Counted from the stretch's first letter, positions 13,090 through 57,364 are shown. The stretch is DNA of 64,000 nt from an uncultured Gammaproteobacteria bacterium (GCA_963768295.1 CAVYHN010000027.1:127009-191008); one strand, 5' to 3'. Numbers and translations are program-made. The notes: a model not told the origin generated them from the letters alone.

Positions 13090-13245
13090 TCCAGTTCATC
13101 ATTAGCCAGGCGCCTCATTCCGTGTCTGGATAATCCCACCGCCCGGCAACCGGGGCAGCCCGGTTATCTTGAAGCGCCAGTTTCCCGACGAAAAACCTGT
13201 ACGTTCCCCGTAAGGTCGATCTGCGCTCTACCGCGCCTAATTTAA

Positions 13246-13330
13246 AGAAAGCAGGCGCTCAGAAATCCGCGTTGACCGGTTGAGCTGACAACCCTTTTGA
13301 GACGCCCACTAAGAAAGCCACGTCGAATGA
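13246..13330 (+). repeat. Island repeat family, degenerate copy (I0)
   Basis: tttgagacgcccactaagaaagcc resembles module M2 of the other copies. Confidence 0.35.
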
Positions 13331-13527: not shown

Positions 13528-14208
13528 ATGAGGAGTAAGATGAAGCTTAAATCATTCTTGGTTGGTTATTGTTTATTTTTATACTCTGGCCAAACTTTGG
13601 CAGCATTAATAACGTACGACTATTCATTCGATACACCACAATTTAACGAAAACCCGTTTGGGCCGGTGAATGATTTACTCCAGCTTGCGGGGTCAACGAT
13701 AACTGGATCTATAACTCTGGATACAGACAATATTGGTGTTCGCAATCCGATAGGGACACGGACTTGGGATGGTTATGCGGTGAGTTCTGGAGGACTAACT
13801 CACAGTGGAGAACTAGACCTGGTCGGTTTCGATACTCAAGCTAGTGTAGCCTATACGCCATATCTCCCAGATAACCCGGGCACTATTCTTAATAGTATTT
13901 CGGGTTGGACTATCCAAGATAGTGATGAGATTCGATTCGATCTTACAATTGACTTCGAACAACTACGAGTTGCAGCACAGTGCTCGGACTTAAAACCAGA
14001 TCCCGATGATATTGGTGTATACGACGCTTGCATAGAAAATGGCAGTACTTATAACAGGAGTATTGCGAATTATCGACCATTAACGAACCTCAGTTTAGCT
14101 CAAGTTCCAGCATCCCCATCACCTGTCCCAGTACCAGCAGCTGTGTGGTTATTCGGTACAGCACTTATTGGATTAGTAGGATTTAGTAAGCGAAGAAAAT
14201 CTGCTTAA
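13528..14208 (+). CDS. Secreted protein with a VPLPA-CTERM (exosortase-type) sorting signal
   Basis: N-terminal signal peptide. C-terminus VPVPAAVWLFGTALIGLVGFSKRRKSA. Confidence 0.7.
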   Translation: MRSKMKLKSFLVGYCLFLYSGQTLAALITYDYSFDTPQFNENPFGPVNDLLQLAGSTITGSITLDTDNIGVRNPIGTRTWDGYAVSSGGLTHSGELDLVGFDTQASVAYTPYLPDNPGTILNSISGWTIQDSDEIRFDLTIDFEQLRVAAQCSDLKPDPDDIGVYDACIENGSTYNRSIANYRPLTNLSLAQVPASPSPVPVPAAVWLFGTALIGLVGFSKRRKSA

Positions 14209-14232
14209 CCAATAGCCTGTGAATTAACTTGA

Positions 14233-14262
14233 AGCCCCGCTATCGTGCGGGGCTTTTTTTTA
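14233..14262 (+). terminator. Rho-independent terminator
   Basis: agccccgc-tatcgt-gcggggct hairpin followed by T9. Confidence 0.75.
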
Positions 14263-14270
14263 TTGAATGG

Positions 14271-14375
14271 TGAGTGTCCGAAATTGGCCAAAAAATGTCT
14301 CCCACTAAAGCTCTATGAGCGTCAGCTTACGAGAAAACCGACGCTCAGACTCGATACATCAGGGGCAAGAACCGA
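14271..14375 (+). repeat. Island repeat copy I1 (modules M1-M2)
   Basis: gagtgtccg..ttggcc...gagcgtcagcttacgagaaaaccgacgctc hairpin. Confidence 0.6.
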
Positions 14376-14564
14376 CCCAACTGAGACACTGCTGCCAAAC
14401 ATCTCAGCCAATCAGGTGGTAGATTTAATCCCGATCCACCTAATAAAGTCGAGATAACAATTACCTATAACAAATCAAACGTGGCTATCAGAATAATGTT
14501 TGATGTGTAATTATGAACATCCATCGGGCCGCAAATATTAAACAAAAGATAGGGAGTAAAGATT

Positions 14565-16043
14565 ATGCGTACTTTTAGTTTATTAGCTGCACTATTTGTT
14601 ACATTTATGATGTTTAGTCTCCAAGCAAAAGCACAAAGCATTCCTCCGGCCTCCGATTGGAGCGCCAGTAACGTTATCACTCTAAATAGAAACTCTCCTG
14701 AACCGACCATGGCAGTGATTGATATTGCTACCGGCGTACTCCTGTCTTACGACGCGCCAACTGGCGGAATCAATGTTGGCACATCGGGACGCCAATACAA
14801 TTTTGTTACCAATGCATCGGTATCTAGTATTCTCACGTTCGACTTATCTATCGACGCAATTAACGGAACATTCAATAATTCGCTAACACTAGAAATCCTA
14901 CATAATGGTAACGTCGTTAGTACTCTGGATTCGACAACTGCGAATACATACACTGCTGATTTTCCAAATCAATCTCTGGACCTTAGTGCCGGTGACTCTT
15001 GGGGCATAAGAGCAACTGCTGGCAACTTTTCTCAGAGCACTGGGACAAGTTCCGAGATTTTAGTAACAAGTATAGAAAATCAAGTCCGATATGATGTTGC
15101 AGATGATTGGAGCGATATTCAAAATCCGAACGGTGTCTGGACCTACGCGGGCGACAGCGGAGCTCTATTGACCATCAATCAGACGGACTGGGATCCGGGG
15201 AATATATTCTTCTCTAGCCAGCAGCAAGCATGGGCTGACGCGATATTCCCAACTCCTGGGCATGTGCCGATGTGGTTCAGGACCTCAGGGCCTTCCGCTC
15301 TAGATGTAACCGGGGTGGGCATGCACGGTTCGGAGGGAGGCAACGTTGCGTGGGTCGGAGTTGTCTGGACGAGTCCGACAGATGGAACGATCAATATTGA
15401 TGGCGGCGTATGGCATGCATTTAAGGCGATTGACAGTTTTGGAAGTGACCACCGGGTCAGAAATTCGGATTGGAGACTTAGACTCAATAACACTGTGCTT
15501 GCTTCCGGAAATGTTTCTGGCACGGATGGTTTTTCGTCCGCCTCACCCTTCGCATTTTCTGCCGGGTCCAACGGCACGTCGTTAAGTGATATACCCATAG
15601 TAGCGGGTGATGACCTGGTCCTGGAATTCATCAGTCCCACTAGTTTCGCGACATTTATTGGTATCGATTTTGTTGTGACTCTTAATCATCCCACTCCCGT
15701 AAGCACACCGCAATGCGACATCCAGTTGAACCAGGCTAACTATGTCGATGGTGAAACAGTAACCGCGAACGTTTTCCGTTTTGCAAATCCGACAGGGGTT
15801 CCTGTTGCAACGGAGATAAAATGCTGGTTGGGCGTGCCCGGAGTTCCACCCATACCAGTTATCAATGTTGGCGCAGATGGTAGTGTCGTGTTCCCAGCAG
15901 GCATGGATATTGATTATGGACCCATTCCACTCTTTCCTGTTACCGGCCTGCCGCGTGGTAGCTACGAGTTGAGCTGTCGCTTGCTGGACCCAGTTACCGG
16001 TGAACTTCTCTGCGAAGATCGTAACTTTTTCGACATCCAGTAA
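14565..16043 (+). CDS. Secreted hypothetical protein (492 aa)
   Basis: Signal peptide MRTFSLLAALFVTFMMFSLQAKA; Ser/Thr/Asn/Gly-rich. Confidence 0.55.
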   Translation: MRTFSLLAALFVTFMMFSLQAKAQSIPPASDWSASNVITLNRNSPEPTMAVIDIATGVLLSYDAPTGGINVGTSGRQYNFVTNASVSSILTFDLSIDAINGTFNNSLTLEILHNGNVVSTLDSTTANTYTADFPNQSLDLSAGDSWGIRATAGNFSQSTGTSSEILVTSIENQVRYDVADDWSDIQNPNGVWTYAGDSGALLTINQTDWDPGNIFFSSQQQAWADAIFPTPGHVPMWFRTSGPSALDVTGVGMHGSEGGNVAWVGVVWTSPTDGTINIDGGVWHAFKAIDSFGSDHRVRNSDWRLRLNNTVLASGNVSGTDGFSSASPFAFSAGSNGTSLSDIPIVAGDDLVLEFISPTSFATFIGIDFVVTLNHPTPVSTPQCDIQLNQANYVDGETVTANVFRFANPTGVPVATEIKCWLGVPGVPPIPVINVGADGSVVFPAGMDIDYGPIPLFPVTGLPRGSYELSCRLLDPVTGELLCEDRNFFDIQ

Positions 16044-16065
16044 ATAGGTAGATCCAAGACCACTA

Positions 16066-16089
16066 AGCCCCGCTCCGGCGGGGTTTTTC
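16066..16089 (+). terminator. Rho-independent terminator
   Basis: gccccgc-tccg-gcgggg hairpin followed by T5. Confidence 0.65.
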
Positions 16090-16099
16090 ATTTCTGCCG

Positions 16100-16262
16100 A
16101 GCGTCTCTTGTTGGCCGATTCGAGAAGCCTGGGAGGCAGATTTCAGCGTCTCCTATTGAGAAAACTGACGCTCACACCTGATGAAGCAGCGGCGATCTAC
16201 GACCCACAACGGACCCTCAGCGTTCCAGCTTTGCCGCGTCCGGCTGCATGCGCTTGTTAGAG
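16100..16262 (+). repeat. Island repeat copy I2, complete (M1-M2-M3 plus the 3' attC-like unit 16204-16262)
   Basis: cttgttggccga...agcgtctcctattgagaaaactgacgct...cagcggcga...CCACAAC..gctgcatgcgcttGTTAGAG. The TTA of the terminal core is the stop codon of minus-strand gene 16257-16877. Confidence 0.7.
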
Positions 16263-16877
16263 TTTTTTGGAGCTATTGGCTCTCGCTGCATATAGGCCCA
16301 GTAATCCAGAGGCAAACAATACCAATGCCCCTGGAATGGGTACAGCGCTTATTGTTCCACTGACGTTGGATTCCAGATCGCCAAATTGTGTTAAAGCACC
16401 TTGAAGCGCTCCTACTCTCAATCGGTCAATAGTACTACTTAAGACTAGGTCAAAAAGCTCAGTCGTGCTTCCAGGAGGTAAAAAAGGATTTGTGCCAATG
16501 TCAAATACAATGCTGAAACTACCAGCTGTAATTCCGTCAATTGTTGGACCAGTTCCTGTAAACAATAAATTAAACCAACCCGCTGAATTGATCGTAGATA
16601 TTAAAGCATTTTCTGCAGTGAAGGCTTGCGCTCCGTAAGTACTATCAATCCAACTGAATGTGCCAGAAACACTGTCGATTGTTGATGTGCTAATGTTCCC
16701 ATTACCAATGTTGAATATGATGTCCGATGTGACCGTTGTTCCAATAGGTAACAAGTTTAAAGCCTGTGGAAGTCCACTGCTCATATCAGCTGAGGTGTTT
16801 ACTGACACCAATGCTGCATGGGAATTGGTTGCAATGACTAAAGTTATTGCTCCAAGTAATTTGACTAGTAGTTTCAT
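16257..16877 (-). CDS. Secreted protein with a PEP-CTERM/VPLPA-CTERM-like C-terminal sorting signal
   Basis: Signal peptide; C-terminus VPIPGALVLFASGLLGLYAARANSSKKL. The stop lies inside the repeat core, and GTTAGAG sits 38 nt upstream of the ATG. Confidence 0.6.
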   Translation of the reverse strand: MKLLVKLLGAITLVIATNSHAALVSVNTSADMSSGLPQALNLLPIGTTVTSDIIFNIGNGNISTSTIDSVSGTFSWIDSTYGAQAFTAENALISTINSAGWFNLLFTGTGPTIDGITAGSFSIVFDIGTNPFLPPGSTTELFDLVLSSTIDRLRVGALQGALTQFGDLESNVSGTISAVPIPGALVLFASGLLGLYAARANSSKKL

Positions 16878-17135
16878 ACTTTCTCCTTGTTGTGCTTCTT
16901 TCTTCTTAAAACTCTAACTTTGATTTAGACGGATGCTGTATTTTTCGGCAATAGACGGAATCCGCCTATTGCATTTGATTCTTTTTATGAAAATAGATGG
17001 CACGTCATTGTTATTATGTATTTTCCTGGTTCCTATTTCCTAAAAATATTTATGGCAATCCGAGATTCCGCTTTTCGTCAAAAGAGTTATACCAGCCTAT
17101 CCAGGCGAACTCAACGAATGCCCGGTTCGTGCCTG

Positions 17136-17345
17136 AAGCAGTAGTTATATTACAAATCCTGAATGTCGGCTGTTGGCCGAAGATTGCCTCCCGCCCTAGT
17201 TTTTTGAGGGTCTCCTTTGGAGAAAACAGACGCCCAAAAATTCCCATTGAGCGGCAGAAACCGCATCCCGAAACAGACGCTCGCGCCAGTGTCGAACCAA
17301 TTGCGCCGCGGGCGCTTTGTCCGATTGCATGCGCTTGTATGGTTG
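17136..17345 (+). repeat. Island repeat copy I3 (long 5' extension, then M1-M2-M3 and the 3' unit)
   Basis: The 48-bp extension gaagcagtagttatattacaaatcctgaatgtcggctgttggccg is identical to copy I11. It contains the exact 19-mer ttggccgaagattgcctcc. It ends GTCGAAC...gattgcatgcgcttgtatgg. Confidence 0.7.
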
Positions 17346-17410: not shown

Positions 17411-18535
17411 TCACTCGTCGAACGAACAAGGCGACAGGCTCATTTTCGGGCCCTGCCCAAGTAACCAGGTTGTCAGTTTATCGGGATCCACTCCAAAACC
17501 ATCCCAGAGGTCCTCATCAAGGTGAACCTCCGAATCGATCGAGTATGAATGAAACTCGGGACTGTCGAAGATATATGGAAAGCTACCTTTCCAGCGACCG
17601 CCGCATACACAATTTCGGGTTGGCTCCGGCGAACATTCCCATCGACGCCGTAGCAACAGTTTTTGTCCCGCGACCGTGTTCTCGCAAGCGACAGATGGAA
17701 AACCAACGCCGAGCGCGATGTAAATCGGGGCGGTTTCCTGCGACAGGCCCTCGCATTTAACAAGTTCGAAATGTGGGTCGATGATATCGACCGGTGATAC
17801 TTCTCCAGATGCGTAGCGTTTTTCGAGTTCGGCCTCGAGTTCGCCCAGCGGCGTATCGGGGTCACTCGGTCTCAGCACACGCTTGCGAAACGCTGCGGCG
17901 CCAACCGCTATCTCACTGTGATCAATGACCCTGCCGGGCGCGCCGTCCCAACTCGCGAGTGCACGAGCGACAGCGGCGAAATGATCCATCGCCTCTTCTC
18001 TGCAAACATTGGGGCGTATCCGGAAAGGCCAGGGCTCCGTGAGCTGCCAGACGACCTCACCGTTTTGCCGATCCTTTAGTAGATAGGTTATATCCGTGAA
18101 TTGCCCGGCGTTCTTACTGATCTGCCAACCTTTCGGGGGATAGATTTTCGGGAGATATTTTATCATCGTGAACGGCTGGACGTCGGGCTTAATGATTTGC
18201 CAATCTTTCGGGAGATAGATGATATCCGGCTTTGAGGCTCTACTTTCCAGGGAGTATCTGGCGGCTGCGCCCTGATGCACCAGCGTCAGACCACTTCGGT
18301 CCAGCCAGTTGGCCAATACCTCGCCGAACTGCGCCTCGTACAAAAAGAACTTATAGCCCGCCCAACTCCGACAGCTGAAACCAGGCCCGGGGACGAACCC
18401 TTGTGGCTGATGTATCAAGATACTGTCACTGACGGTCGCGGTGGGGGTAACGCTAACCGGAGGTCTAAGCTGTTTCGGCGAGTTCGTGATGCCACAGCCA
18501 ACGAGCAAAAAAATACATGCGGCCAATGCCGCCAT
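17411..18535 (-). CDS. Hypothetical lipoprotein
   Basis: ORF 17411-18592. The likely start is MAALAACIFLLVGCG with a lipobox LVGC. No recognisable domain. Confidence 0.5.
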   Translation of the reverse strand: MAALAACIFLLVGCGITNSPKQLRPPVSVTPTATVSDSILIHQPQGFVPGPGFSCRSWAGYKFFLYEAQFGEVLANWLDRSGLTLVHQGAAARYSLESRASKPDIIYLPKDWQIIKPDVQPFTMIKYLPKIYPPKGWQISKNAGQFTDITYLLKDRQNGEVVWQLTEPWPFRIRPNVCREEAMDHFAAVARALASWDGAPGRVIDHSEIAVGAAAFRKRVLRPSDPDTPLGELEAELEKRYASGEVSPVDIIDPHFELVKCEGLSQETAPIYIALGVGFPSVACENTVAGQKLLLRRRWECSPEPTRNCVCGGRWKGSFPYIFDSPEFHSYSIDSEVHLDEDLWDGFGVDPDKLTTWLLGQGPKMSLSPCSFDE

Positions 18536-18889
18536 GTGACCGAGGGCGACGCCCGAACTAAACCGCCGACAGCTAAATATGGGCTTTTCCAAGTGCTTCT
18601 CCCGTGGGCATAGTACAAATAACTAGAAGAATAAAAGTTCTATCTGCCAGTATCAATCGGCGAAATCAAATCCAGGATCTATCCTTTTTTTCTGTTATTT
18701 ACTGTAATGCCTGAATAATTGCCCACCGTTTTGCCTTTTGTTCCCTAATGTTTAACAGTTGATTATTTGGAGGGCTCAACTGGTGTTTTATGCAGTTGGT
18801 ACAAATATTGCGATGTTAAGCAAAATTTTGTCATCTATTTTCAATAAACTCTATGTCCGCTTCTGGCTATTCTCGGAAGCCTGGACCTT

Positions 18890-20143: not shown

Positions 20144-20266
20144 GGGCGTCCGGTGTTGGCCGAAGATTGCCTCCTACCATGACTTGACGAGCGGCAGCTT
20201 ACGAGAAAGTTGCCACTGAAATCATATACACCAGCAGCCGATTTCGGTTATTCAATTTGTTAGGTG
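20144..20266 (+). repeat. Island repeat copy I5
   Basis: gggcgtccggtgttggccgaagattgcctcc...tgccactgaaatcat..cagcagccg...tttGTTAGGT. The TTA of the core is the stop of gene 20260-20499. Confidence 0.65.
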
Positions 20267-20499
20267 GACGATTGGTCATTTTTTCTCTGGTACTCTCGGA
20301 CGGCCAACACGAGGAAGAGAATCAAACACGCCCCGGAAATTACAATCCACGCAATCTTTCCGGCCTCGCTTTCTATTGGTTTTTGAGTCCAGAAAATCAC
20401 CTCAGCATTAGCATAATTTAGTAATGTCAGGGCTCCAATAACCACCGAGCAGAAGGCCAACATGGCGAGCCAGACCAGCATGAACAATTTATGCTTCAT
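20260..20499 (-). CDS. Small membrane protein (2 TM helices)
   Basis: 79 aa with two hydrophobic helices; the stop is embedded in the repeat core ACCTAAC. Confidence 0.45.
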   Translation of the reverse strand: MKHKLFMLVWLAMLAFCSVVIGALTLLNYANAEVIFWTQKPIESEAGKIAWIVISGACLILFLVLAVREYQRKNDQSST

Positions 20500-20524: not shown

Positions 20525-20589
20525 GCGCCTCGCATCAGCGGCAAAATGCGCGCGTAGCGGGCACTTTGTCCGACAGCATGCGCTTGTTA
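20525..20589 (+). repeat. Island repeat copy I6 (3' attC-like unit only)
   Basis: catcagcggcaaaatgcgcgcg...ctttgtccgacagcatgcgcttGTTAGGGC. Confidence 0.6.
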
Positions 20590-20593
20590 GGGC

Positions 20594-22750: not shown

Positions 22751-22927
22751 CAGTGGCAGCTGTTGGCCGAGGGTCGCCTCTGAACTCTAAGTTTTGAGTG
22801 TCAGCTAACGGGAAAGCAGGCGCTTAAAACTCAAAGATCAACTTCCCGCTAACTACTCAAAGCTGATATTCAGCACCAGGCAAACTGAAGCCGTATTGTT
22901 CTATCCGACTGCATGTGCTTGTTATGG
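22751..22927 (+). repeat. Island repeat copy I8, complete (M1-M2 plus the 3' unit 22847-22927)
   Basis: cagtggcagctgttggccgag...gagtgtcagctaacgggaaagc...CGCTAACtactcaaagctg...atccgactgcatgtgcttGTTATGG. The TTA is the stop of gene 22922-23164. Confidence 0.7.
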
Positions 22928-23164
22928 TTTTTTCTTTTGATCGCCCCCTTTGCTGCCGTTACTATCGCCGATACCATAACCAGAAGGGAAAGATATCCAT
23001 TTCCCATGATCTGCACCATGAGAAATTCCTACTCCCAATATGACCGGCAAAATACCCCACAGACTATCATCATGCAGGATCACGTAAAACCCATATCCGA
23101 GAATGCAAAGCCCTATAATTCTTTGAATATATATTCGTCTAATTGAGTAGTATTGAGTAACCAT
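22922..23164 (-). CDS. Small membrane protein
   Basis: ORF 22922-23173. The ATG at 23164 lies inside the GTTATGG core of repeat I9. Hydrophobic 80-aa product. Confidence 0.4.
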   Translation of the reverse strand: MVTQYYSIRRIYIQRIIGLCILGYGFYVILHDDSLWGILPVILGVGISHGADHGKWISFPSGYGIGDSNGSKGGDQKKKP

Positions 23165-23219
23165 AACGCTCAAATCAGCGGCACAGCTTTGCTAGGTCCG
23201 ACTGCATGCGCCTGTATGG
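23161..23219 (+). repeat. Island repeat copy I9: minimal 59-bp attC-like unit with inverted 7-bp termini
   Basis: CCATAAC-gctcaaatcagcggcacagctttgctaggtccgactgcatgcgcc-TGTATGG. It fills the whole spacer between two minus-strand genes. Confidence 0.65.
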
Positions 23220-23239
23220 TTCTGTGTGCAATATTGGAA

Positions 23240-23934: not shown

Positions 23935-25371
23935 TCATTGAAACGCAGGAATAATATATTTCTTCATAATATTATCAGCGGATGAAGTACCATCGAAATC
24001 GTATGCAGTAGTAACAACAACCAGGTTTAATTTTTTTATAATAATTATTCGTTGACCTCCAAAACCAAAAGCGGCTATTGCCCTATATTTCTTGCCGTTA
24101 ACGTAATAAATTCTGCTCCACCAATAATATCCATATCCGCTCCATTTGTTATCATTGGTTGTAATATGTTTTGTTGTGGATTCTTCTATCCACTCTTCAT
24201 CTATGATTTGCTGATCGTTCCAAGTTCCCTTCTCCAACATAATTTGACCAATTTTTGCCATATCACGGGGGCGTAATCTAAGTCCTCCTGCTGAATTCTG
24301 CCGACCGTCCGTTTGTTTTTCCCAATACGCATTTTCTATACATAAATTTGATAACGAGCTTTTTCCGACAAAATCCGCGAGGGATGCTGCACCTGTTGCA
24401 TTCTTTATTATTTCGCCTATTACGGTGACATATCCACCACTGTAGGTAAAAACCTCTCCCGGAACATATACCGAAGGAACCGAAAGAGTAAACTCAATGG
24501 AATCAGTACTATTCATCTCTCGCCTTCGAATGTTATTTGGATGTTTATATGATGGGTTATGCTCATCCCAGTCTAATCCGGCGGACATGGTCAATAAGTC
24601 TTTAATTGTGATTTTCTCCTTTTTACCAATAAGGATAGATTTGTACTTTGGTAAGTATTTAAGGATAGGGTCATCGACACTTTCAATAAAACCTCTATTT
24701 ATTGCATCTCCTAAAAGTAAGGAGGTAAAGCTTTTGCTGATCGACTGCATCTGATGGTTTTCTTCCTGGCTCCATCCCCGAAAATACTGCTCTACAACAA
24801 GCTTTCCATCTTTCAAAATCAACAAACCGTTTTGTTTCCCGAATGAACCGTTTTTCAGTTTTTCAATGAATTCGTTTGTTATTTTATCGTCGCCACTAAC
24901 TTCGATAACGGAACCCGTTTTGATACCTTGTTGGCATTCTGCTTGTGTTTGGTTTTCGCCTATCTTGTCCAAACCATCTAACGAATCGTAAATACCTTCC
25001 TCATATCTTGTTTGAGGTATATGCAATCTTGTAAGGCTTTTTTCCAATTGACCTTTTTCTTTGATTGTCAAATGCTGATATTTTCCATTTTCCAATTTAT
25101 TAAATCGACCACGAATATTGAAGCTTTTCAGACGAAGGTCCGTATCCGTTTCCAGGATTATTTCATCTTTTCCTCTCCAATCTTTTCCAAACAGTTTCCC
25201 ATTTTGTTCATTAATGATTACTTTATAGTCTCCAAGGATTACATTATAAGCTCCACTTGCACGATCAGAATAGAAGCCAACATACTTGTCACTTTCAAAA
25301 TTGGTAATTCCAGAGCTACCCGCACATGCAGATAGAAATAAAACAGATGTGATCACTAGATAATATTTCAT
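23935..25371 (-). CDS. Serine hydrolase of the beta-lactamase/PBP family with an N-terminal lipoprotein extension
   Basis: Lipobox LSAC; SISKSF (SxxK) active-site motif; 478 aa; very AT-rich. Confidence 0.6.
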   Translation of the reverse strand: MKYYLVITSVLFLSACAGSSGITNFESDKYVGFYSDRASGAYNVILGDYKVIINEQNGKLFGKDWRGKDEIILETDTDLRLKSFNIRGRFNKLENGKYQHLTIKEKGQLEKSLTRLHIPQTRYEEGIYDSLDGLDKIGENQTQAECQQGIKTGSVIEVSGDDKITNEFIEKLKNGSFGKQNGLLILKDGKLVVEQYFRGWSQEENHQMQSISKSFTSLLLGDAINRGFIESVDDPILKYLPKYKSILIGKKEKITIKDLLTMSAGLDWDEHNPSYKHPNNIRRREMNSTDSIEFTLSVPSVYVPGEVFTYSGGYVTVIGEIIKNATGAASLADFVGKSSLSNLCIENAYWEKQTDGRQNSAGGLRLRPRDMAKIGQIMLEKGTWNDQQIIDEEWIEESTTKHITTNDNKWSGYGYYWWSRIYYVNGKKYRAIAAFGFGGQRIIIIKKLNLVVVTTAYDFDGTSSADNIMKKYIIPAFQ

Positions 25372-25488
25372 GAACTCTTTATTCTCCTTAAGAGCTAACA
25401 GAGAATTCTACAGACTCCCTGTTTACTGAGTTTTAGGGAGTCTGTAAAACCCAGTATACGTGAATGGGCAAAGGTCTCCTAAGTGCCG

Positions 25489-25600
25489 GAAGCAGTAGTT
25501 ATATTACAAATCCTGAATGTCGGCTGTTGGCCGTACCAGGAAGCTCGAAACCCGCGTTTAAGTGTCTGTTTACGAGATAAAATCACGCAAGACAAAATAC
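25489..25600 (+). repeat. Island repeat copy I11
   Basis: Shares the 48-bp 5' extension with I3, then ttggccgtaccaggaagctcg...gtttaagtgtctgtttacgagataaaatcacgc. Confidence 0.6.
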
Positions 25601-26121: not shown

Positions 26122-26565
26122 TTAATGCTCTGCAAATACCTCCATATTTCCCTGTTCATCGAAGCTTATGACGTTATGGGATTGGACCGTACCCCCACTT
26201 TCCATACCCGGCGTGCCAACAGGCATGCCCGGGACCGCAATCCCCTTGATGTCTGGCCGGAAAAGTAACAGCCGCTTGATATCCCGGTGGGTAATATGGC
26301 CCTCGACTATATATCCATCGATGACCGCGGTATGACAGGCCGCCAGTCTTTCCGGTACCCCGAGGCGCTTTTTCACCGCTAGAACGTCGCGAGTACTCTC
26401 AATTGTGACGTTGTAGTTTCTATCCTGTAAATACTTTACCCACTTGGTACAACAGCCACACTCGGGATTTTTGTAGACCACTATATCCTTTACTGGAGCG
26501 TCGCTGGCGAAAGCCATTGTTACGGTCAGGATATTTAATATTCCTAACATTAAAATCGATTTCAT
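26122..26565 (-). CDS. DUF411 metal-binding protein (copper/silver-resistance-associated family)
   Basis: Signal peptide; CGCC...MPVGTPGMESGG are conserved DUF411 motifs. Confidence 0.65.
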   Translation of the reverse strand: MKSILMLGILNILTVTMAFASDAPVKDIVVYKNPECGCCTKWVKYLQDRNYNVTIESTRDVLAVKKRLGVPERLAACHTAVIDGYIVEGHITHRDIKRLLLFRPDIKGIAVPGMPVGTPGMESGGTVQSHNVISFDEQGNMEVFAEH

Positions 26566-26657: not shown

Positions 26658-26757
26658 ACGAACTCAGCGGCGAAAGGCGACCCAATGCCGACCCCCGCAA
26701 ATGTTTCGAATTGCCAGTGTAACGGGTACTTTGCTCGACTACATGCACTTTTAATTA
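26658..26757 (+). repeat. Island repeat copy I13 (M3 plus a degenerate 3' unit)
   Basis: CACGAACtcagcggcgaaaggcgaccc...ctttgctcgactacatgcacttttaattaagg. Confidence 0.5.
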
Positions 26758-26795
26758 AGGAAAACTGCTGTTTGATCCTTTACTCTGTTGGTTCT

Positions 26796-27632
26796 TTATT
26801 TCACTTGTGACCAGCCATGTTCAGGTCGATATTCAACTTTATAAATTTCGCTATTTAGAAACCAAGCGACAATAGCATTACCCTCGTTATCGATATTGAT
26901 TTTTGGATAGGTGTATACCCTAGTGCCGATATCGCTGATCAACACAGGCCCTGACCAGCCCGTGTGCTCACTGTAAACAGCCGCATAGATAAACTGCAAA
27001 TCCTGATTCCAGGTAATCGCGGACTGGCCATGATTGTTAATCGTTTCATCGACTCTTCCCAAATTAATCCCCGGCATCGCCAAGTCCAGGTCAGCCAGCT
27101 CAAAATCCTGAGGCAGGGTGTCGTCGTTAACCATGACGGAGAATATTGATTCCCGGGAGGAGTGTTGAAACAGTGGATTAGGTCGAAGGGAAGGCAAAGT
27201 GACATACAAATTGTCCCGGGCAGCGTTATCGCCATTCGCATCGTGCGCGTGAACTTCGATGTTATTTTCTCCAGACGACAAGTTGATTGTGAATTCCCAT
27301 TCTCCGGTACTACTGGTGAAACTGGTACAGCTATCAATCGATGGAAAATTGAAAACACAGATGAAAATATCAGAGCTGGGATTACACTCAACAACCGGAA
27401 TGAAAAAAGGCCATGGAAAACTTGTTTCGCAAACATTAACCGTTTTCTGAAACACCGTGCCGCTTACCGTAATTTGCGATTGGCTAGGCATAGCCTGGTA
27501 GGCACTGGAACTGGTAGGTGTCTCTATTTTAATCCAGCCGTCACTTTCCTCGTCATCACTATCACTACTCCCGCAACCACTTAGAATTAGCAATGCGGCA
27601 AACAGGATAGGAAAGAAATTATGAGTTTTCAT
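26796..27632 (-). CDS. Hypothetical lipoprotein (278 aa)
   Basis: Lipobox ILSGCGSS followed by a D/E/S-rich linker. Confidence 0.5.
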   Translation of the reverse strand: MKTHNFFPILFAALLILSGCGSSDSDDEESDGWIKIETPTSSSAYQAMPSQSQITVSGTVFQKTVNVCETSFPWPFFIPVVECNPSSDIFICVFNFPSIDSCTSFTSSTGEWEFTINLSSGENNIEVHAHDANGDNAARDNLYVTLPSLRPNPLFQHSSRESIFSVMVNDDTLPQDFELADLDLAMPGINLGRVDETINNHGQSAITWNQDLQFIYAAVYSEHTGWSGPVLISDIGTRVYTYPKINIDNEGNAIVAWFLNSEIYKVEYRPEHGWSQVK

Positions 27633-28022: not shown

Positions 28023-31000
28023 TTGGAGGCGATGGGTAAATACGTTCTCACTTTTTTGAAACTACTGCCAGGGCTGTTGTTCCTGGCCGGACTCGGCTTA
28101 TATATATTTCGCGTACCACTTATGGACAGTCTGCTGATTGGTCAGTTAACGCGGCTCGGTGTTCCAATGAACTCCGTCACAGTCAAAGAGGTTTCACTGA
28201 ACGAACTTGAATTACGCAAACTTTCACTAGGTGCTGCAAACGAATTGCGGGCTGACAAAATAAACGCCACATGGACGCTGCCAGGCTTGTTTGAGGGAGA
28301 ACTGCAAACGGTGGAGATTAGCGGTCTGCAGTTATTGCTCGACCTGACTGGAAAAAATCATCCTCTCGGATCGTTACAGAAACTGATTGGGAATGAAGGC
28401 GATACCGAAAATAATAAACTTCCACAGGTATCGCTGCTCGATGCAAAAGTCGATCTACACACCGCATTAGGGAATTTTACAGTCAATCTACATGGCGACA
28501 TTAAACCAGGGCCGTCAGACAAAAAACTAATAGCCATCAATATTGAGACCAGCGCAGAGCCAGGCCATGTAATTGCTGATCTCACTGCAACGCTGGAAGC
28601 TGGCGGAAAACTGCAGGGAGTACTAACGGTATCGCAAGCCGCGCTGTCACTACCCGATTTAAATATTTCCGAGATACGGGGCAAAAGCTCCTTCGAATGG
28701 AAAGATAATCGGCCGCAGGCTATCAGCGCTGATTTTGTTTTATCACATATCGGCCTTCCAGGCGGTGGGCCACAGGACGAAGCCTTTGAACAGGGCGTAA
28801 TCACTCTGCAAATGAATGCGACGGATGCGCGCATTAAAGGCGAATTATTGGCGGCAGAACATGCGTCCGGGCTTGCTTTTACTGTGACGTTGAATGATTA
28901 CCGACGTCAACCCGGCATCGTAGCTGATGTCACGGCCGAAGTTAATGCTGACAGTGTTATCTGGCGTTTATCCGGACTATCTCAACCAGACAAAGGATTT
29001 GCCAGCTTGACAGTGAGGGCTGATGGGAAAACACCTGCATTGCGGACAGCTGGTGACAACTGGCGAAGCTGGTTGCAGCACAGCACACTGCAGGGCCAGG
29101 GCATTCTCAGACTGGATGGACTCGATTTCGCACAAAAAGTTGCTGATCTCAACGGTGATGTTGAGATTAAAACTGAATTGGCTGACGGACTGGGAAAATT
29201 AACGCTTGCAGAAGACAGCAGCATCGAAGCCTCCGGCCTGGATCCTGATTGGATCGAGCGTCTCGGAATCCCCTCGACGCTGCTCGCTGGGCTAAAACAG
29301 GATACAAAACTGCGCATTACGAGCAAAGGTGAAAATAGTGCAACCGTAACTATCGGCATGATGGCCGATGAAACTCAAATGGATCTTGCAACTGATCTGG
29401 AGTTTATTGTTGATAAAGCGCGAGCCGACATAAGCGCACGGGCAGAGGTCATCATTAGTCGGCAAAACCAGGTGACAGTATTCAAACTTGGTGAGGTCAA
29501 TGTCATCTCTTCAGGATTCAAATACGCCGGTAACACGATCGACAAATTGACTTTGAGCGGCAACTTGCAGGGGTCAGCCGATACATGGGCGGGGGAGCTG
29601 GACCTTGCCGCAGATGCAAAACGATTTCATCTCGGCCAACTGGCTGCGCGCCAGACAAGCGTTAGTTTGCCGATGCGGGTCAACTTCAAAGAACAAGGCG
29701 GGCAACTGTCACTACGCAAGCCGGGACAGATGACAGTTGCAAAACTTGCGCCGTTCAAGGCGTTTCGAGTCAAAGGACCTTTGAAATTGCACCTTCCCAG
29801 GTCTGATATCCGGTTTGCGTGGGGATCCCGGGGTTTGTCATTGGAAAATCAGGTTACGCTGCAACCTGGCAACTTCACGTTGCTTGTCAACCGCGATGAC
29901 GCGCCGGAGCTGGAAATGGAAATTCGTCCCGGGAAGATTTCGCACACGGGCAGGATGGAAACTACAGGTCAGATCGATGGCAAGAGCATTATCAGCGCAG
30001 CCGGCATTACTTTGCCGCAATACCAGATTCAACTGGAAGAAATCACGACTACGATAAGCCACGGTGAATCAGGCGAGCTTCAACTCGCCGATTTCAGAAT
30101 TGATCGGCTGCAACATCTGGCGCCAAAACCTTATTTTGCGCCGATCAGTCTGGCCGGCCACGTGAAGCTTGGGAGCAAGCGTTTATTCATCGACGCCCTT
30201 GGCGGCATACCCGGTAAACAATATTTAAAACTAGCTGCCGTGCATGGGCTCGATACGGGCGAGGGTAACCTGAAACTGGATGTTGCCCCGTTGACATTCT
30301 CACCCGGCGCATTGCAACCGGTTGCGCTTTTCCCTGGTCTGGGCATGCTGAAGTCCGTCAGTGGCTCTGCCAGCGCCAGTAACCACATCGGTTGGTTGAA
30401 AACAGGTATTGAAAGCGGTGCCGAGATTAATATACAGAACCTGTCTTTTACTCAGAATGGAACCACTGTCAGCGACCTGTCAGCCGCGTTACAACTGACG
30501 GACCTGTTATCTCCCAAAAGCCTTCCGCGGCAAAAAATTACGGTTCGACGTCTCGATCCTGGTGTTGCCATGGAGGATATGGAAATTATATACAGGATTC
30601 AGGGAACAGACTCGACTCAGCTCGCCATCGACCAAGCCCAGCTGTCTATGATCGGCGGTACGCTGTCGACAGGCCCTGTCGTAATTGACCCTTTATCCAG
30701 CTCTACCAACCTGGTGTTTCAAGTGGCCAATCTCGACCTCGAAGCACTGTTCAAATTGATAGATGTCGAGGGGCTTGCGGGGGACGGGCGTCTTGACGGC
30801 AGTATTCCACTGACTTTGAGAAATGAATCTGTCTCGATCGAAGACGGCGTGCTTACCGCAAACAAGCCGGGGATACTTCGCTTAAAGTCAGAAAAGGTGT
30901 CGAACTTACTGGCTGGCAGCGCTGAAGATGTCGATCTGCTGTTGCAGGCGCTGACGGAATTTCACTACACCGAACTGATATTGAAAATGAATAATTCTGC

Positions 31001-31178
31001 ACACAATGACCTGCTGACTACACTTTCCTTGCTTGGCAATAATCCGAATGTCCTCGAAGGACGGTTATTTCGTTTGAATATCAATCTGGAAAGTAATATC
31101 GGTGCAATCCTGAACGCCCTCGGCCAGGCTTATGGAGTATCCAGTAAAGCCCTTCAGCGAGTGTTCAGATTACACTAG
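28023..31178 (+). CDS. ydbH: YdbH-family (AsmA-like, DUF940) large envelope protein
   Basis: 1051 aa with an N-terminal TM anchor, followed by ynbE and ydbL homologs as in E. coli ydbH-ynbE-ydbL. Confidence 0.75.
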   Translation: MEAMGKYVLTFLKLLPGLLFLAGLGLYIFRVPLMDSLLIGQLTRLGVPMNSVTVKEVSLNELELRKLSLGAANELRADKINATWTLPGLFEGELQTVEISGLQLLLDLTGKNHPLGSLQKLIGNEGDTENNKLPQVSLLDAKVDLHTALGNFTVNLHGDIKPGPSDKKLIAINIETSAEPGHVIADLTATLEAGGKLQGVLTVSQAALSLPDLNISEIRGKSSFEWKDNRPQAISADFVLSHIGLPGGGPQDEAFEQGVITLQMNATDARIKGELLAAEHASGLAFTVTLNDYRRQPGIVADVTAEVNADSVIWRLSGLSQPDKGFASLTVRADGKTPALRTAGDNWRSWLQHSTLQGQGILRLDGLDFAQKVADLNGDVEIKTELADGLGKLTLAEDSSIEASGLDPDWIERLGIPSTLLAGLKQDTKLRITSKGENSATVTIGMMADETQMDLATDLEFIVDKARADISARAEVIISRQNQVTVFKLGEVNVISSGFKYAGNTIDKLTLSGNLQGSADTWAGELDLAADAKRFHLGQLAARQTSVSLPMRVNFKEQGGQLSLRKPGQMTVAKLAPFKAFRVKGPLKLHLPRSDIRFAWGSRGLSLENQVTLQPGNFTLLVNRDDAPELEMEIRPGKISHTGRMETTGQIDGKSIISAAGITLPQYQIQLEEITTTISHGESGELQLADFRIDRLQHLAPKPYFAPISLAGHVKLGSKRLFIDALGGIPGKQYLKLAAVHGLDTGEGNLKLDVAPLTFSPGALQPVALFPGLGMLKSVSGSASASNHIGWLKTGIESGAEINIQNLSFTQNGTTVSDLSAALQLTDLLSPKSLPRQKITVRRLDPGVAMEDMEIIYRIQGTDSTQLAIDQAQLSMIGGTLSTGPVVIDPLSSSTNLVFQVANLDLEALFKLIDVEGLAGDGRLDGSIPLTLRNESVSIEDGVLTANKPGILRLKSEKVSNLLAGSAEDVDLLLQALTEFHYTELILKMNNSAHNDLLTTLSLLGNNPNVLEGRLFRLNINLESNIGAILNALGQAYGVSSKALQRVFRLH

Positions 31179-31302
31179 GCATACTGCCCATCGTTGATGC
31201 CCGGGGTAGATGGGTATCTGGATTACTGCTAAGCTGATTTTGTAATTGGTAAGTATTTATCCGCCAGGATAATGTGAAATTAACCCGGAGTGAGTACGAT
31301 CT

Positions 31303-31503
31303 ATGCGCAGGAACTATCATATAAATTTTGTCTCAGTTGTCGCAGTGCTGCTACTCATGACGGCCTGTACACCAACTGTCAGAGTTGAAGCGCCAAAAGA
31401 ACCAATCACGATTAACCTCAATATCAAACTGGATGCTGATGTGCGCGTGAAACTGCAAGAAGAGGCAAAAAAAGATATTGAATCGAATCCGGATGTTTTT
31501 TAA
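31303..31503 (+). CDS. ynbE: YnbE-family lipoprotein
   Basis: LLLMTACTPTVRVEAPKEPITINLNIKLD matches the YnbE consensus. Confidence 0.8.
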   Translation: MRRNYHINFVSVVAVLLLMTACTPTVRVEAPKEPITINLNIKLDADVRVKLQEEAKKDIESNPDVF

Positions 31504-31544
31504 TGAAAGTATTTACCAGTAAATATATTTTTCGGGAGGACAGC

Positions 31545-31889
31545 ATGCTGCGAAATTTCAGTTCAGGTTTCTACAGATCCATCATGATGACTATCGCGGT
31601 ATTTCTATTGGCGAGTGGAGTTACAGCCTGGGCCGGTTCACTGCAGGACTTGCGTGCTTCCGGCGCACTCGGTGAAAGTGCCAGTGGCTATACGGTGGCA
31701 CGTGATCCCAGCGCAACTGCGGAGGTTGCTTCGATCAACGAGAAACGCAAGGCCGTCTATGCGGAAAAGGCGGCAGCTCAGGGTGTAAGTATCGAGCAGG
31801 TTGGTAAGGTTTATGCGAAGGAGATATTCGAGAAAGTCCCGGCTGGCACCTGGCTTCAAAACGAGCAAGGCCAGTGGTTAAAGAAATGA
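31545..31889 (+). CDS. ydbL: YdbL-family (DUF1318) periplasmic protein
   Basis: The ORF is open from 31503 (TAATG overlap with the ynbE stop). An SD-supported Met lies at 31545. DUF1318-like core. Confidence 0.65.
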   Translation: MLRNFSSGFYRSIMMTIAVFLLASGVTAWAGSLQDLRASGALGESASGYTVARDPSATAEVASINEKRKAVYAEKAAAQGVSIEQVGKVYAKEIFEKVPAGTWLQNEQGQWLKK

Positions 31890-35380: not shown

Positions 35381-35750
35381 TTGAATATGCCAGAGGGAAA
35401 AGTACTCAAGCAGCGGGACAGGCACCTGGATCGATTAAACGATTCGAGCCTGTTGTGCGACCGCGCCTACATTGACGGCGAGTGGTGCGAGGGCGACGAC
35501 GATGCGCGTTTCGATGTCACCAATCCGGCGGATGGCGCCTGGTTGGCGGCGGTATCGAGCGTCGGCGCCGCACAGAGCCTTGCTGCGGTCGACGCGGTTG
35601 ATGCGGCAGCCAGGGAATGGTCGGAGTCAATTGCACCAGGGTTACCGGTGCGCCGATCCCATTGGGCGGCATGAAACAATCCGGCCGCGAACGCGAAGGA
35701 GCCAGGCAGGGCATGGAAGCCTGCACCGAAGTCAAATACGTTTGCCGGGA
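35381..35750 (+). pseudogene. gabD: Remnant of succinate-semialdehyde/aldehyde dehydrogenase (gabD-like) with a roughly 1.1-kb internal out-of-frame deletion
   Basis: The first frame encodes an ALDH N-terminus (YIDGEWCEGDDDARFDVTNPADGAW...AAREW), stopping at 35674. A different frame from about 35602 encodes an ALDH C-terminus (VGVNC...PIPLGGMKQSGRERE...TEVKYVCRDYD*). Confidence 0.7.
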
Positions 35751-35796
35751 TTACGATTGAACACCCGGCTAATCGCTTAACGAATCAGGAAATACG

Positions 35797-37412: not shown

Positions 37413-38690
37413 TTAAAGTTGGTAAACGATTTCGGCGGCGATGATGGTGTGGGTGACGCTGCCGCGGAAATCCCAGCCTTCGAAGGCCGTGTTCCTGCCC
37501 TTGGAGACAAAATTGACCGCCTGACAGATCCAGTGGGTTTCGGGGTCGACGATGATCAGGTCCGCGACCTCGCCGGCTTCGATTTTACCGCCGGGCAGCC
37601 CCATGATGGTAGCTGGATTCAGCGTCAGCCTGGCGATCAGGTCGGCCAGCGGCAGCACGTCCTCCTCGACCAGGCGCAGCGCCAGGGGCAGGAGGGTGTC
37701 GAGCCCGCTGATGCCGGGTTCTGCCGACGGGTAGGGTTTCAGCTTGGCGTCGACCTCATGCGGCTGGTGATCCGAGCACAGGCAGTCGATGGTGCCATCA
37801 GCCACACCCTCGCGCAGCGCATCGCGGTCTGACTCACTGCGCAGCGGCGGGATAGTAAACATGTTGCTATCGAAATAGCCGATATCGTGATCGGTGAGAA
37901 ATAACTGGTGGATGGCGCAATCGGCGCTGATCGGCAAGCCCTTGGCCTTGGCGCGGCGAATCATGTCGACCGAGCGCGCGCAGGAAAGCTGGCCGAAATG
38001 CGTGCGCGCGCCGGTCTGCGCCACCAGTTCGATGTCTTTGGCCAGCGCCGCGGTTTCGGCTGCTTCCGGGATCGCGGGCAGCCCTAGCCGGGTCGAGATA
38101 GCGCCCTCGTGGGCGCAGCCGTTGCCGAGCAATTCATGGTCCAGGGGCTGAATGATAACCATCGACTGCTGACCCGCGGCATAGTCCATCGCGCGTCGCT
38201 GCACCAGGTTGTTGGCCAGTGGAATCTTGGCATTGCTGAACGCAATGCAGCCGTTATCGCGCAGGCTCGCCATGTTGCTGAGTTGCTCGCCGCCGAGCCC
38301 GCGAGTCAGCGCACCGATCGGATAGACATGTGCCCTGTGTCCAAACATTTCATTGCGATGGTGGATCAACTCGACGGTGGCCGAATTGTCGATCGCCGGC
38401 TGTGTGTCCGGGGGCAGGCACAGGCTGGTGATTCCGTTTTTGATCGCGGCCAGGGTCTCGCTTTCGATGTTGGCCTTTTCCGGTTGCCCGGGGTCGCGCA
38501 GTCGCGCCTGGCAATCGATCAGGCCGGGCATGATCCAGCGGCCGGCGGCATCGATCGTCTGCGTTGCCTGGAAACTATCTGGCGCCTTGTCGATACCGAC
38601 GATCTTGCCATCCTGCAGATATAAATCGGCCTGGCGTTGCGTCGATCCGGCGGCTTCAACCAGCAGACCGTTTTTGATATGCAGGCTCAA
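37413..38690 (-). CDS. pyrC': Dihydroorotase-like non-catalytic subunit PyrC' (pseudoenzyme partner of aspartate carbamoyltransferase)
   Basis: Amidohydrolase fold, but the N-terminal metal-binding HxH is replaced ([13 protein letters not shown]). Overlaps the pyrB stop (ATGA). Confidence 0.75.
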
Positions 38691-57196: not shown

Positions 57197-57364
57197 AAAT
57201 AATCTCCAAACTATTTATGAGCGCCGTTGTATTGATCCTGTGGGCGAGCCTGGCAGCCGGGCTGTCGCAACGCTCCTCGCACACAAGTCCCCTAATTCAG
57301 GGGACCGGTTAGTGTATCTATATACGCGCGGCTGTCAATTTGGATCAGTCTCGCTGGCGGCGGT

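Follow-up and report, generated by a model that had tools for sequence, protein, structure and literature searches.

What kinds of genes travel in a low-GC insertion of an uncultured gammaproteobacterium, and what moves them? The question is raised by a 64,000-nt stretch of DNA from an uncultured Gammaproteobacteria bacterium (GCA_963768295.1 CAVYHN010000027.1:127009-191008; the whole stretch is called the window, and positions are counted from its first letter), in which three neighbouring genes at 13528-16877, termed P1, P2 and P3, encode proteins with export signals. The genes lie in a low-GC insert (the island, or array) that carries a repeat of about 125 nt at its gene borders. An initial annotation, made from the sequence alone, described them as cassettes resembling the cargo of chromosomal integrons and assigned exosortase sorting signals to two of them. 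The reading favoured here, held with moderate confidence, is that P1-P3 are separate acquired exported modules, P1 and P3 with predicted exosortase tails, in an integron-like repeat-exchange array without canonical attC sites or IntI. The claim about the cargo is of modest interest. The more unusual object is the array itself, because its repeats fail the tests for attC sites yet mark the borders of exchangeable modules across a clade of uncultured Gammaproteobacteria. Loci related to the window are designated by L and a number.

Three Exported Proteins

Translation of the interval 13528-16877 yields three intact open reading frames (ORFs), two of them followed by a terminator:

13528-14208, plus strand: P1, 226 aa, with a signal peptide, an orphan-like N-terminal domain and the tail VPVPAAVWLFGTALIGLVGFSKRRKSA
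14231-14256, plus strand: intrinsic terminator of P1, a 10-bp stem with 7 GC pairs and then a T run
14565-16043, plus strand: P2, 492 aa, with a signal peptide and three modules, without a C-terminal sorting tail
16065-16086, plus strand: intrinsic terminator of P2, a 9-bp stem with 6 GC pairs and then a T run
16257-16877, minus strand: P3, 206 aa, with a signal peptide, an 8-stranded beta-barrel body and the tail VPIPGALVLFASGLLGLYAARANSSKKL

The three adjacent signal-peptide genes that had been proposed are thus all present, as are the terminators ascribed to the first two; that P3 lies on the minus strand had been left unsaid. Each gene is preceded by a GGAG-type ribosome-binding site. The true start of P1 is probably the ATG at 13540, which would give a protein of 222 aa; an identical public protein is annotated with a start four residues later, also at 222 aa. 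Direct reading together with a simple heuristic points to classical Sec signal peptides in all three, with predicted signal peptides MKLKSFLVGYCLFLYSGQTLA before A in P1, MRTFSLLAALFVTFMMFSLQAKA before Q in P2 and MKLLVKLLGAITLVIATNSHA before A in P3. The share of Ser, Thr and Asn residues is 22.1% in P1, 25.6% in P2 and 28.6% in P3, against 14.7% in the core ORFs of the window, and P2 accordingly answers to the 492-aa secreted Ser/Thr/Asn-rich protein of the initial annotation. The GC contents (0.43, 0.49 and 0.42 for P1, P2 and P3) lie below the 0.57 of the flanks.

The C-Terminal Tails of P1 and P3

A P-E-P-like motif, a membrane helix and a basic cluster stand in this order at the extreme C-terminus of both P1 and P3. 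In P1 they span residues 200-224 of 226 (VPVPA, WLFGTALIGLVGF, SKRRK), and in P3 residues 179-206 (VPIPG, ALVLFASGLLGLYAA, RANSSKK). Both proteins share with substrates of PEP-CTERM/exosortase sorting (TIGR02595, PF07589; Haft and colleagues) a signal peptide and a C-terminal VPxP motif, helix and basic residues. They differ in that another residue stands in place of the P-E-P glutamate (VPVPA in P1, VPIPG in P3), that P3 scores below the cut-offs, and that no exosortase or exopolysaccharide (EPS) locus is seen in the 64-kb window. Ten multi-transmembrane ORFs of related loci, inspected as exosortase candidates, are transporters or MurJ, and none is an exosortase.

The VPLPA-CTERM variant (TIGR03370) is paired with a dedicated exosortase, XrtD. 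The tail of P1, VPVPAAVWLFGTALIGLVGFSKRRK, aligns along the entire 25-position TIGR03370 model, at 24.6 bits (E=1.8e-5) against a cut-off of 25.35 and so 0.75 bit short. The same protein passes TIGR02595 PEP_CTERM (17.9 bits, cut-off 16) and narrowly fails PF07589 (19.5 bits, cut-off 20.7). Matches to P1 were found in 582 database proteins, nearly all of them to the tail only, with up to 100% identity and with unrelated N-terminal domains. One tail on hundreds of unrelated domains is a pattern typical of a sorting tag. Seven of 32 proteins carrying this tail reach the VPLPA-CTERM model at E<=1e-5, and VPLPA-CTERM is the NCBI name of some proteins that share it. The VPLPA type proposed for P1 therefore misses the curated cut-off yet agrees with the proteins bearing the same tail, and P1 is accepted as a predicted PEP-CTERM protein of this type.

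The case for P3 is drawn from its family. C-terminal matches of P3 to PEP-CTERM family models reach an E of about 0.01 only. Its family is compact, with 27 proteins at 47-74% identity, among which V179, P180 and P182 are invariant; a hydrophobic helix and basic residues come next. Between the two prolines the family has I, V, A, E or L, and in three members the motif is VPEPG/N. TIGR02595 is matched at E<=0.1 by 5 of the 17 members scanned, and the NCBIfam matches of the family are to PEP-CTERM-class models only. The AlphaFold2 model of P3 is a beta fold with a terminal membrane helix at 182-205. Because the family keeps the VPxP/helix/basic tail and hits only PEP-CTERM-class models, P3 is accepted, on family evidence only, as a diverged PEP-CTERM-like protein. 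The two sorting signals originally proposed are hence both present as tails; P1 passes TIGR02595, whereas P3 stays below every threshold.

P2, a Predicted Secreted Beta-Sandwich Protein

P2 has no match in Pfam or NCBIfam. A HMMER search of 1.8 billion representatives returned 1212 relatives, which resolve modules at about residues 1-170, 174-380 and 380-492; elsewhere these modules are partnered by PKD, CHRD, PPC, BNR, lectin and haemolysin-type domains. The AlphaFold2 model consists of beta-sandwich domains, with a predicted local distance difference test score (pLDDT) >93 at 380-492. A fold search of the PDB gave generic matches only (RbmA, the Epf adhesin and Ig-like domains of GH2), with template modelling (TM) scores <0.2. 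P2 is best described as a secreted multi-domain protein with a predicted beta-sandwich fold, and is possibly adhesive.

Residues 380-492 (window 15702-16043) form a 110-residue beta-sandwich module with four cysteines and no Pfam model. It recurs in roughly 700 metagenome proteins (E<=1e-10), alone or with the other modules of P2 and with many partner domains. The idea that this C-terminal module is itself a sorting tag was rejected, because it is internal, or N-terminal, in many homologues.

An Insertion at the pilU Junction

The three genes stand at the left of an insertion whose parts are the following:

13090-37412, no strand: insertion, 24.3 kb between pilU and a dihydroorotase-like gene (37413-38690)
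13.1-35.3 kb: low-GC, repeat-bounded array, part of the insertion
34.7-37.2 kb: GC-rich block of AsnC, aldehyde-dehydrogenase fragment and aminotransferase, part of the insertion

Its extent follows from a comparison with 80 metagenomic loci anchored on PilU. In at least 12 relatives (PilU 67-89% identical) the dihydroorotase-like gene follows pilU within about 50-450 bp, so that window 13090-37412 is an insertion of 24.3 kb. GC content is 0.470 in the array (13090-35340) and 0.567 in the flanks. In L101, the closest relative (PilU 97%), the same place holds a different insert of 4 kb, with genes for a membrane protein, for an FAH-like enzyme and for a beta-barrel protein and with one repeat copy at its end; this is the single copy found in about 250 kb of the pilU-anchored relatives. 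The locus is thus variable between related strains, and P1-P3 are absent from the pilU-anchored relatives. A search for tRNA genes in the window found none.

Three further observations concern the same site. In one relative, at L107:1413-1832, the otherwise empty pilU/dihydroorotase-like junction holds a different, long palindromic insert of about 420 nt, and the junction thus seems to be a recurrent insertion hotspot. The GC-rich AsnC/aminotransferase block is also absent from the locus in relatives. Within it, window 35381-35780 encodes an N-terminal aldehyde-dehydrogenase-like fragment, probably a pseudogene, beside the AsnC regulator and a class-III aminotransferase.

A Repeat at the Module Borders

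About 17 copies of the repeat occur in the window, all on the plus strand and at gene borders of the island, with none in the 42 kb of core flanks. They mark each module border and lie at 13233, 14271, 16099, 17160, 18851, 19286, 20143, 20944, 22212, 22752, 23673, 25514, 25972, 26641, 27803, 31998, 32146 and 35313. Each of P1, P2 and P3 is flanked by copies, namely the first four:

13233-13308, plus strand: partial repeat, right half (nhmmer model positions 49-124), at the left edge of the array
14271-14391, plus strand: full repeat at the P1/P2 border (nhmmer E=1.6e-23)
16099-16258, plus strand: repeat with a 3' tail ..GCATGCGCTTG followed by TTAGAG (nhmmer E=9.6e-31, model positions 2-157)
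17160-17339, plus strand: full repeat with tail, bounding the P3 module (nhmmer E=4e-37)

The consensus, GAGTGTCCGCTTTTGGCCGAAGATTGCCTCC...TGAGCGTCTCCTTTGGAGAAAACAGACGCTCAAA...GCGGCGATTTACGACCCAAAACAGACACTC, is an imperfect palindrome with inverted ends, and beyond its TGGCCG box two subtypes are found, AAGATTGCCTCC and TTCGAGAAGCC. The left halves are constant, and the right halves are often diverged or missing: 102 copies are full, 77 consist of the left half only and 19 of the right half only, and in 24 the left half runs on into part of the right. The flanks of the consensus show no obvious target-site duplications. Rfam scans at gathering and E-value thresholds left the repeats unmatched, with only terminator-like hits and an S-adenosylhomocysteine (SAH) riboswitch.

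The repeat belongs to a lineage rather than to this locus. Among species-representative genomes, 91 stretches contain its 18-mer TGGCCGAAGATTGCCTCC. Nearly all of these belong to metagenome-assembled genomes (MAGs) of uncultured Gammaproteobacteria from marine, sediment and host-associated sources, with many contigs per MAG carrying it. In 75 related loci 233 copies were mapped, which lie on one strand in 51 of the 56 multi-copy loci. The median spacing in these arrays is 1086 bp, and GC is 0.479 inside and 0.517 outside them.

Comparison between loci indicates what the repeats delimit. Homology between loci has 113 internal end-points; 57 of them lie within the repeats, which make up 5% of the sequence (p about 4e-43), and they cluster in the conserved left half. 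Modules shared with other MAGs at about 90% identity stand among different neighbours, as seen for ydbH-ynbE-ydbL in L028, PhyH in L036 and L061, and DUF411 in L010. Homology that ends inside repeats, together with modules whose neighbours have changed, indicates that the repeats delimit exchangeable modules, for which "cassette" is a fair word. In the window itself, a 51-nt segment is 98% identical at 17129-17179 and 25483-25533, and the identity breaks off directly behind GTTGGCCG, pointing to a possible breakpoint of recombination at this box.

Homologues on Other Platforms

A link between this cargo and integrons lies outside the window. A P3 homologue, P0126 (71% identity), occupies L095:1314-1925, with a canonical attC site on each side (1196-1284 and 1932-2020). 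The region L095:1-9900 is a classical integron array with 16-17 attC sites (CCTAACAA...AAACGTTAGG) and co-oriented small ORFs; it begins a 209-kb metagenomic contig, and its integrase side lies beyond the contig end. As the P3 homologue is a cassette there, PEP-CTERM-class proteins can be cassette cargo. Other P3 homologues are lone chromosomal genes (L094, from Methylotuvimicrobium sp. KM1; L096; L099), and in L098 the repeat family of the window stands on either side of a P2 homologue (84% identity across 66% of the query). The occurrence of P2 and P3 homologues in an integron, in repeat arrays and in chromosomes indicates that these genes travel as single-gene units on more than one platform. 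VPLPA- or PEP-CTERM genes also stand next to the same repeat in L057, L024 and L092.

In the cultured methanotroph Methylotuvimicrobium sp. KM1 (L094:8893-10618, CP173170.1) a VPVPA-CTERM protein is encoded directly upstream of the P3 homologue, and this tail-bearing gene pair adjoins a ParE/RelB pair. P1 and P3 as a conserved pair were nevertheless rejected, since the KM1 VPVPA protein is unrelated to P1 outside the tail.

Exchange Array, Mobile Repeat or Integron

On the favoured reading, P1, P2 and P3 would be three separate, horizontally acquired single-gene modules for all-beta proteins that are rich in Ser, Thr and Asn and exported through Sec. An exosortase with its gene elsewhere in the genome would recognise the tails of the exported P1 and P3 and cleave them, leaving the two proteins anchored to the cell surface or matrix or released there; P2 would act as a secreted or adhesin-like beta-sandwich protein. 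The insertion consists of about 17-20 gene-sized modules, with borders marked by a lineage-specific repeat of about 125 nt in uniform orientation, and the same repeat delimits exchangeable modules at many loci of an uncultured marine/sediment clade of Gammaproteobacteria. Recombination in the conserved left half of the repeat may add, remove and exchange modules, through an enzyme presumably encoded elsewhere and possibly with the help of homologous recombination between copies. A bolder version is advanced as a tentative possibility rather than as an expectation: that the arrays represent an undescribed gene-cassette system without an adjacent integrase, whose site is the sequence-conserved inverted-repeat element of about 125 nt, and which shuffles exosortase-substrate and envelope genes between arrays and genomes of this clade.

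Several results weigh against the favoured reading. Neither the window nor about 600 kb of related arrays yielded a recombinase gene. The homology end-points are spread over roughly 80 nt and not set at one position. Under a hand-named structure, pairing in the repeat is 70.8% against 70.3% in shuffles; the symmetry is a property of the consensus, and compensatory changes do not uphold it. Homologous recombination between proliferating repeats resembling miniature inverted-repeat transposable elements (MITEs) would fit the missing covariation and the spread end-points equally well. As to the cargo, P1 misses two of three curated cut-offs, and P3 misses every curated threshold among the sorting-domain models (11.3 bits for PF07589, and nothing for TIGR02595 at E<=1). 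Sorting of P1 and P3 by an exosortase is a prediction from their sequences. The excess of PEP-CTERM-like tails, 2 of 27 ORFs in the island against 2 of 248 in related arrays (p=0.049), is a comparison chosen post hoc. Finally, the signal-peptide and lipobox calls derive from a home-made heuristic, and the ORF caller was home-made too.

In one alternative, the island is an ordinary genomic island or insertion hotspot with no cassette system at all, in which the repeat has spread like a MITE or a repetitive extragenic palindromic (REP) element, homologous recombination alone has reshuffled the genes, and the pair of PEP-CTERM tails is a coincidence. The repeat has the traits of such elements and of enterobacterial repetitive intergenic consensus (ERIC) sequences, being about 125 nt long, non-coding and imperfectly palindromic with inverted ends, and occurring in many diverged or truncated copies. 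Its consensus is conserved in sequence without covariation, the copies are dispersed over many contigs per MAG, and truncated left-only (77) and right-only (19) copies are common beside the 102 full ones. Homology end-points spread across the conserved left half, no associated recombinase was seen, and PEP-CTERM tails are rare in the other arrays (2/248). In other respects the repeat departs from ERIC, REP and MITE repeats. It is limited to low-GC accessory arrays, with the core flanks free of it, and it stands about once per gene border at the median spacing given above. It keeps the same strand in 51 of 56 loci, which the free spread of a MITE would not predict, and half of all homology end-points fall inside it, at the borders of exchangeable modules. 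Dispersal of a MITE-like repeat without any cassette system is regarded as an unlikely explanation of the array. Recurrent ORF families of the arrays were considered as a recombinase or transposase and rejected, since they resemble CadC-like regulators, sensor proteins and FHA proteins.

The remaining alternative takes the island for a sedentary chromosomal integron, or for a cluster of attC sites lacking integron-integrases (CALIN), read on the minus strand, with long or degenerate attC sites and with IntI outside the window. The likeness to integrons and CALINs is evident in the one-orientation imperfect palindromes between single-gene low-GC modules, in the exported cargo, and in exchangeable gene-sized modules whose content differs between strains; the P3 homologue in L095 is moreover a true cassette. 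Of 18 island ORFs, 11 lie on the minus strand, opposite to the repeat, and 7 on the same strand. Some repeat copies are followed by a conserved tail ..TTTGTCCGACTGCATGCGCTTGTTAGRG (16217-16260, 17300-17343, 20545-20593, 22890-22926, 23175-23221 and 26717-26760), and six or seven copies end in ..GCATGCGCTTG followed by TTAGRG, abutting minus-strand ORFs. Two minus-strand ORFs, P3 and 22922-23173, take their stop codon from the TTA of GTTAG in this tail, as occurs with R'' cores. In addition, the segment 23157-23221 on the minus strand folds end to end (AACCATAC..GTTATGGTT).

Tests for the defining parts of an integron gave a different result. A tblastn search with an IntI1 query found no intI in the 64-kb window or in the related loci; the query works, as it matches a tyrosine recombinase in an unrelated locus, L133. 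Pfam searches of the flanking ORFs likewise found no integrase. Five attC sites of L095, which represent a single attC subfamily, were used to build a covariance model; it recovers about 14 further attC-type sites of L095 outside the training set, and in the window it has no hit (best E=3.6, at unrelated positions). A crude scan for AAC..GTT hairpins showed the island to be no richer than its flanks, with none at module borders. In the palindrome the 5' arm has GTT and the 3' arm AAC, a polarity opposite to that of attC. DNA folds of single repeat copies are not better than shuffles, and RNAalifold gave the repeat no consensus structure or pairs; run on an unguided MAFFT alignment of 16 attC sites, it predicted no pairs either. 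Segments from the right arm to the tail (..GCATGCGCTTG followed by TTAGRG) fold no better than shuffles, whereas L095 attC sites have z values of -3.0 and -4.4. The reverse complement of the 3' tail was also tried as an attC R''-L'' arm, and as a position-weight matrix of R'' arms gave no more hits than chance, this resemblance is not relied on.

Neither does the gene order match that of co-oriented promoterless cassettes. The island ORFs face both ways, P1 and P2 have terminators of their own, and in related arrays 98 ORFs are opposite to the repeat and 74 on the same strand (p=0.08). It is concluded that the array is integron-like in layout and outcome and that it failed the defining integron/CALIN tests, the attC model covering one subfamily. 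A sedentary integron or CALIN is accordingly judged improbable, with no intI in any related locus and a repeat conserved in sequence and not in structure. Of the likeness to chromosomal-integron cargo first claimed, the variable, foreign, repeat-bounded single-gene modules stand; no integrase, no attC sites (by two tests) and no common orientation were found.

If P1 and P3 are real exosortase substrates, then PEP-CTERM-class surface-anchored proteins would be traded as single-gene modules, classical integrons such as L095 included. Cassette-type gene flow would in that event bear on the make-up of the surface and matrix, a connection that was not met in the literature searched. Repeat-bounded arrays of this kind resemble a platform for cassettes, one that would probably escape standard integron tools, and knowing what recombines them would tell whether integron-like gene capture arose with a different site and enzyme.

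Exported Cargo of the Island

Beyond P1-P3, the array holds further ORFs with predicted export or envelope functions:

17411-18592, minus strand: lipoprotein-like ORF (lipobox LLVGC, heuristic), without a family match
20260-20499, minus strand: small membrane-protein ORF, 79 aa (translation, heuristic)
22922-23173, minus strand: small membrane ORF (heuristic)
23935-25371, minus strand: lipoprotein of the serine beta-lactamase/PBP family (PF00144, E=4.7e-28; lipobox LSAC)
26122-26565, minus strand: periplasmic DUF411 protein (PF04214, E=1.2e-22)
26796-27632, minus strand: lipoprotein with an Ig-like segment (lipobox LSGC)
28023-31889, plus strand: ydbH-ynbE-ydbL envelope operon (PF11739, E=6.6e-67; PF07027, E=4.4e-22)
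31303-31503: YnbE-like lipoprotein, part of the ydbH-ynbE-ydbL operon region

The additional lipoproteins and small membrane proteins expected among the cargo are thus found, as four lipoproteins and the membrane ORFs at 20260-20499 and 22922-23173. Export signals were called in 12 of 27 island ORFs and in 4 of 38 core ORFs of the window (p=0.003, Fisher), in 59 of 248 ORFs of related arrays (p=0.034 for the island against these) and in 40 of 206 outside the related arrays. The island is rich in exported proteins; across the array family any such excess is mild at most. An excess of signal peptides among integron cassette cargo has already been published (16.1% versus 6.8%; PMC10661359), and the secreted-protein bias of cassette cargo is therefore known.

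PEP-CTERM-like tails were sought with a regular expression and a hidden Markov model (HMM) made from the tails of P1 database matches. In the 64-kb window only P1 and P3 have them, and in related arrays the two cases are L057:1126-1845 (VPLPA type) and L024:2203-2823 (VPEP). Two tails among about 23-27 ORFs exceed an assumed genome-wide rate of 0.3-2%, with a binomial p of 0.002 to 0.08 depending on the rate and under post hoc selection. PEP-CTERM cargo is a local feature of the island and not a rule of the array family. The proposed enrichment in exported and exosortase-type proteins consequently holds for export signals, and its exosortase part amounts to two genes. No article linking PEP-CTERM to gene cassettes was met in the literature searched, in keeping with the view that such substrates are rarely reported as cassette cargo.

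Two of the modules can be followed into other genomes. The DUF411 module is 94% identical in another MAG (L010), where the homology begins at the TGGCCG box of the repeat. The ydbH-ynbE-ydbL operon, normally a core operon, lies here inside an accessory array, and it is 90% identical to L028:843-4942, with the homology ending in the next repeat. Outside the island, window 57212-57284 on the minus strand is an SAH riboswitch (57 bits) upstream of an adenosylhomocysteinase gene, an ordinary arrangement.

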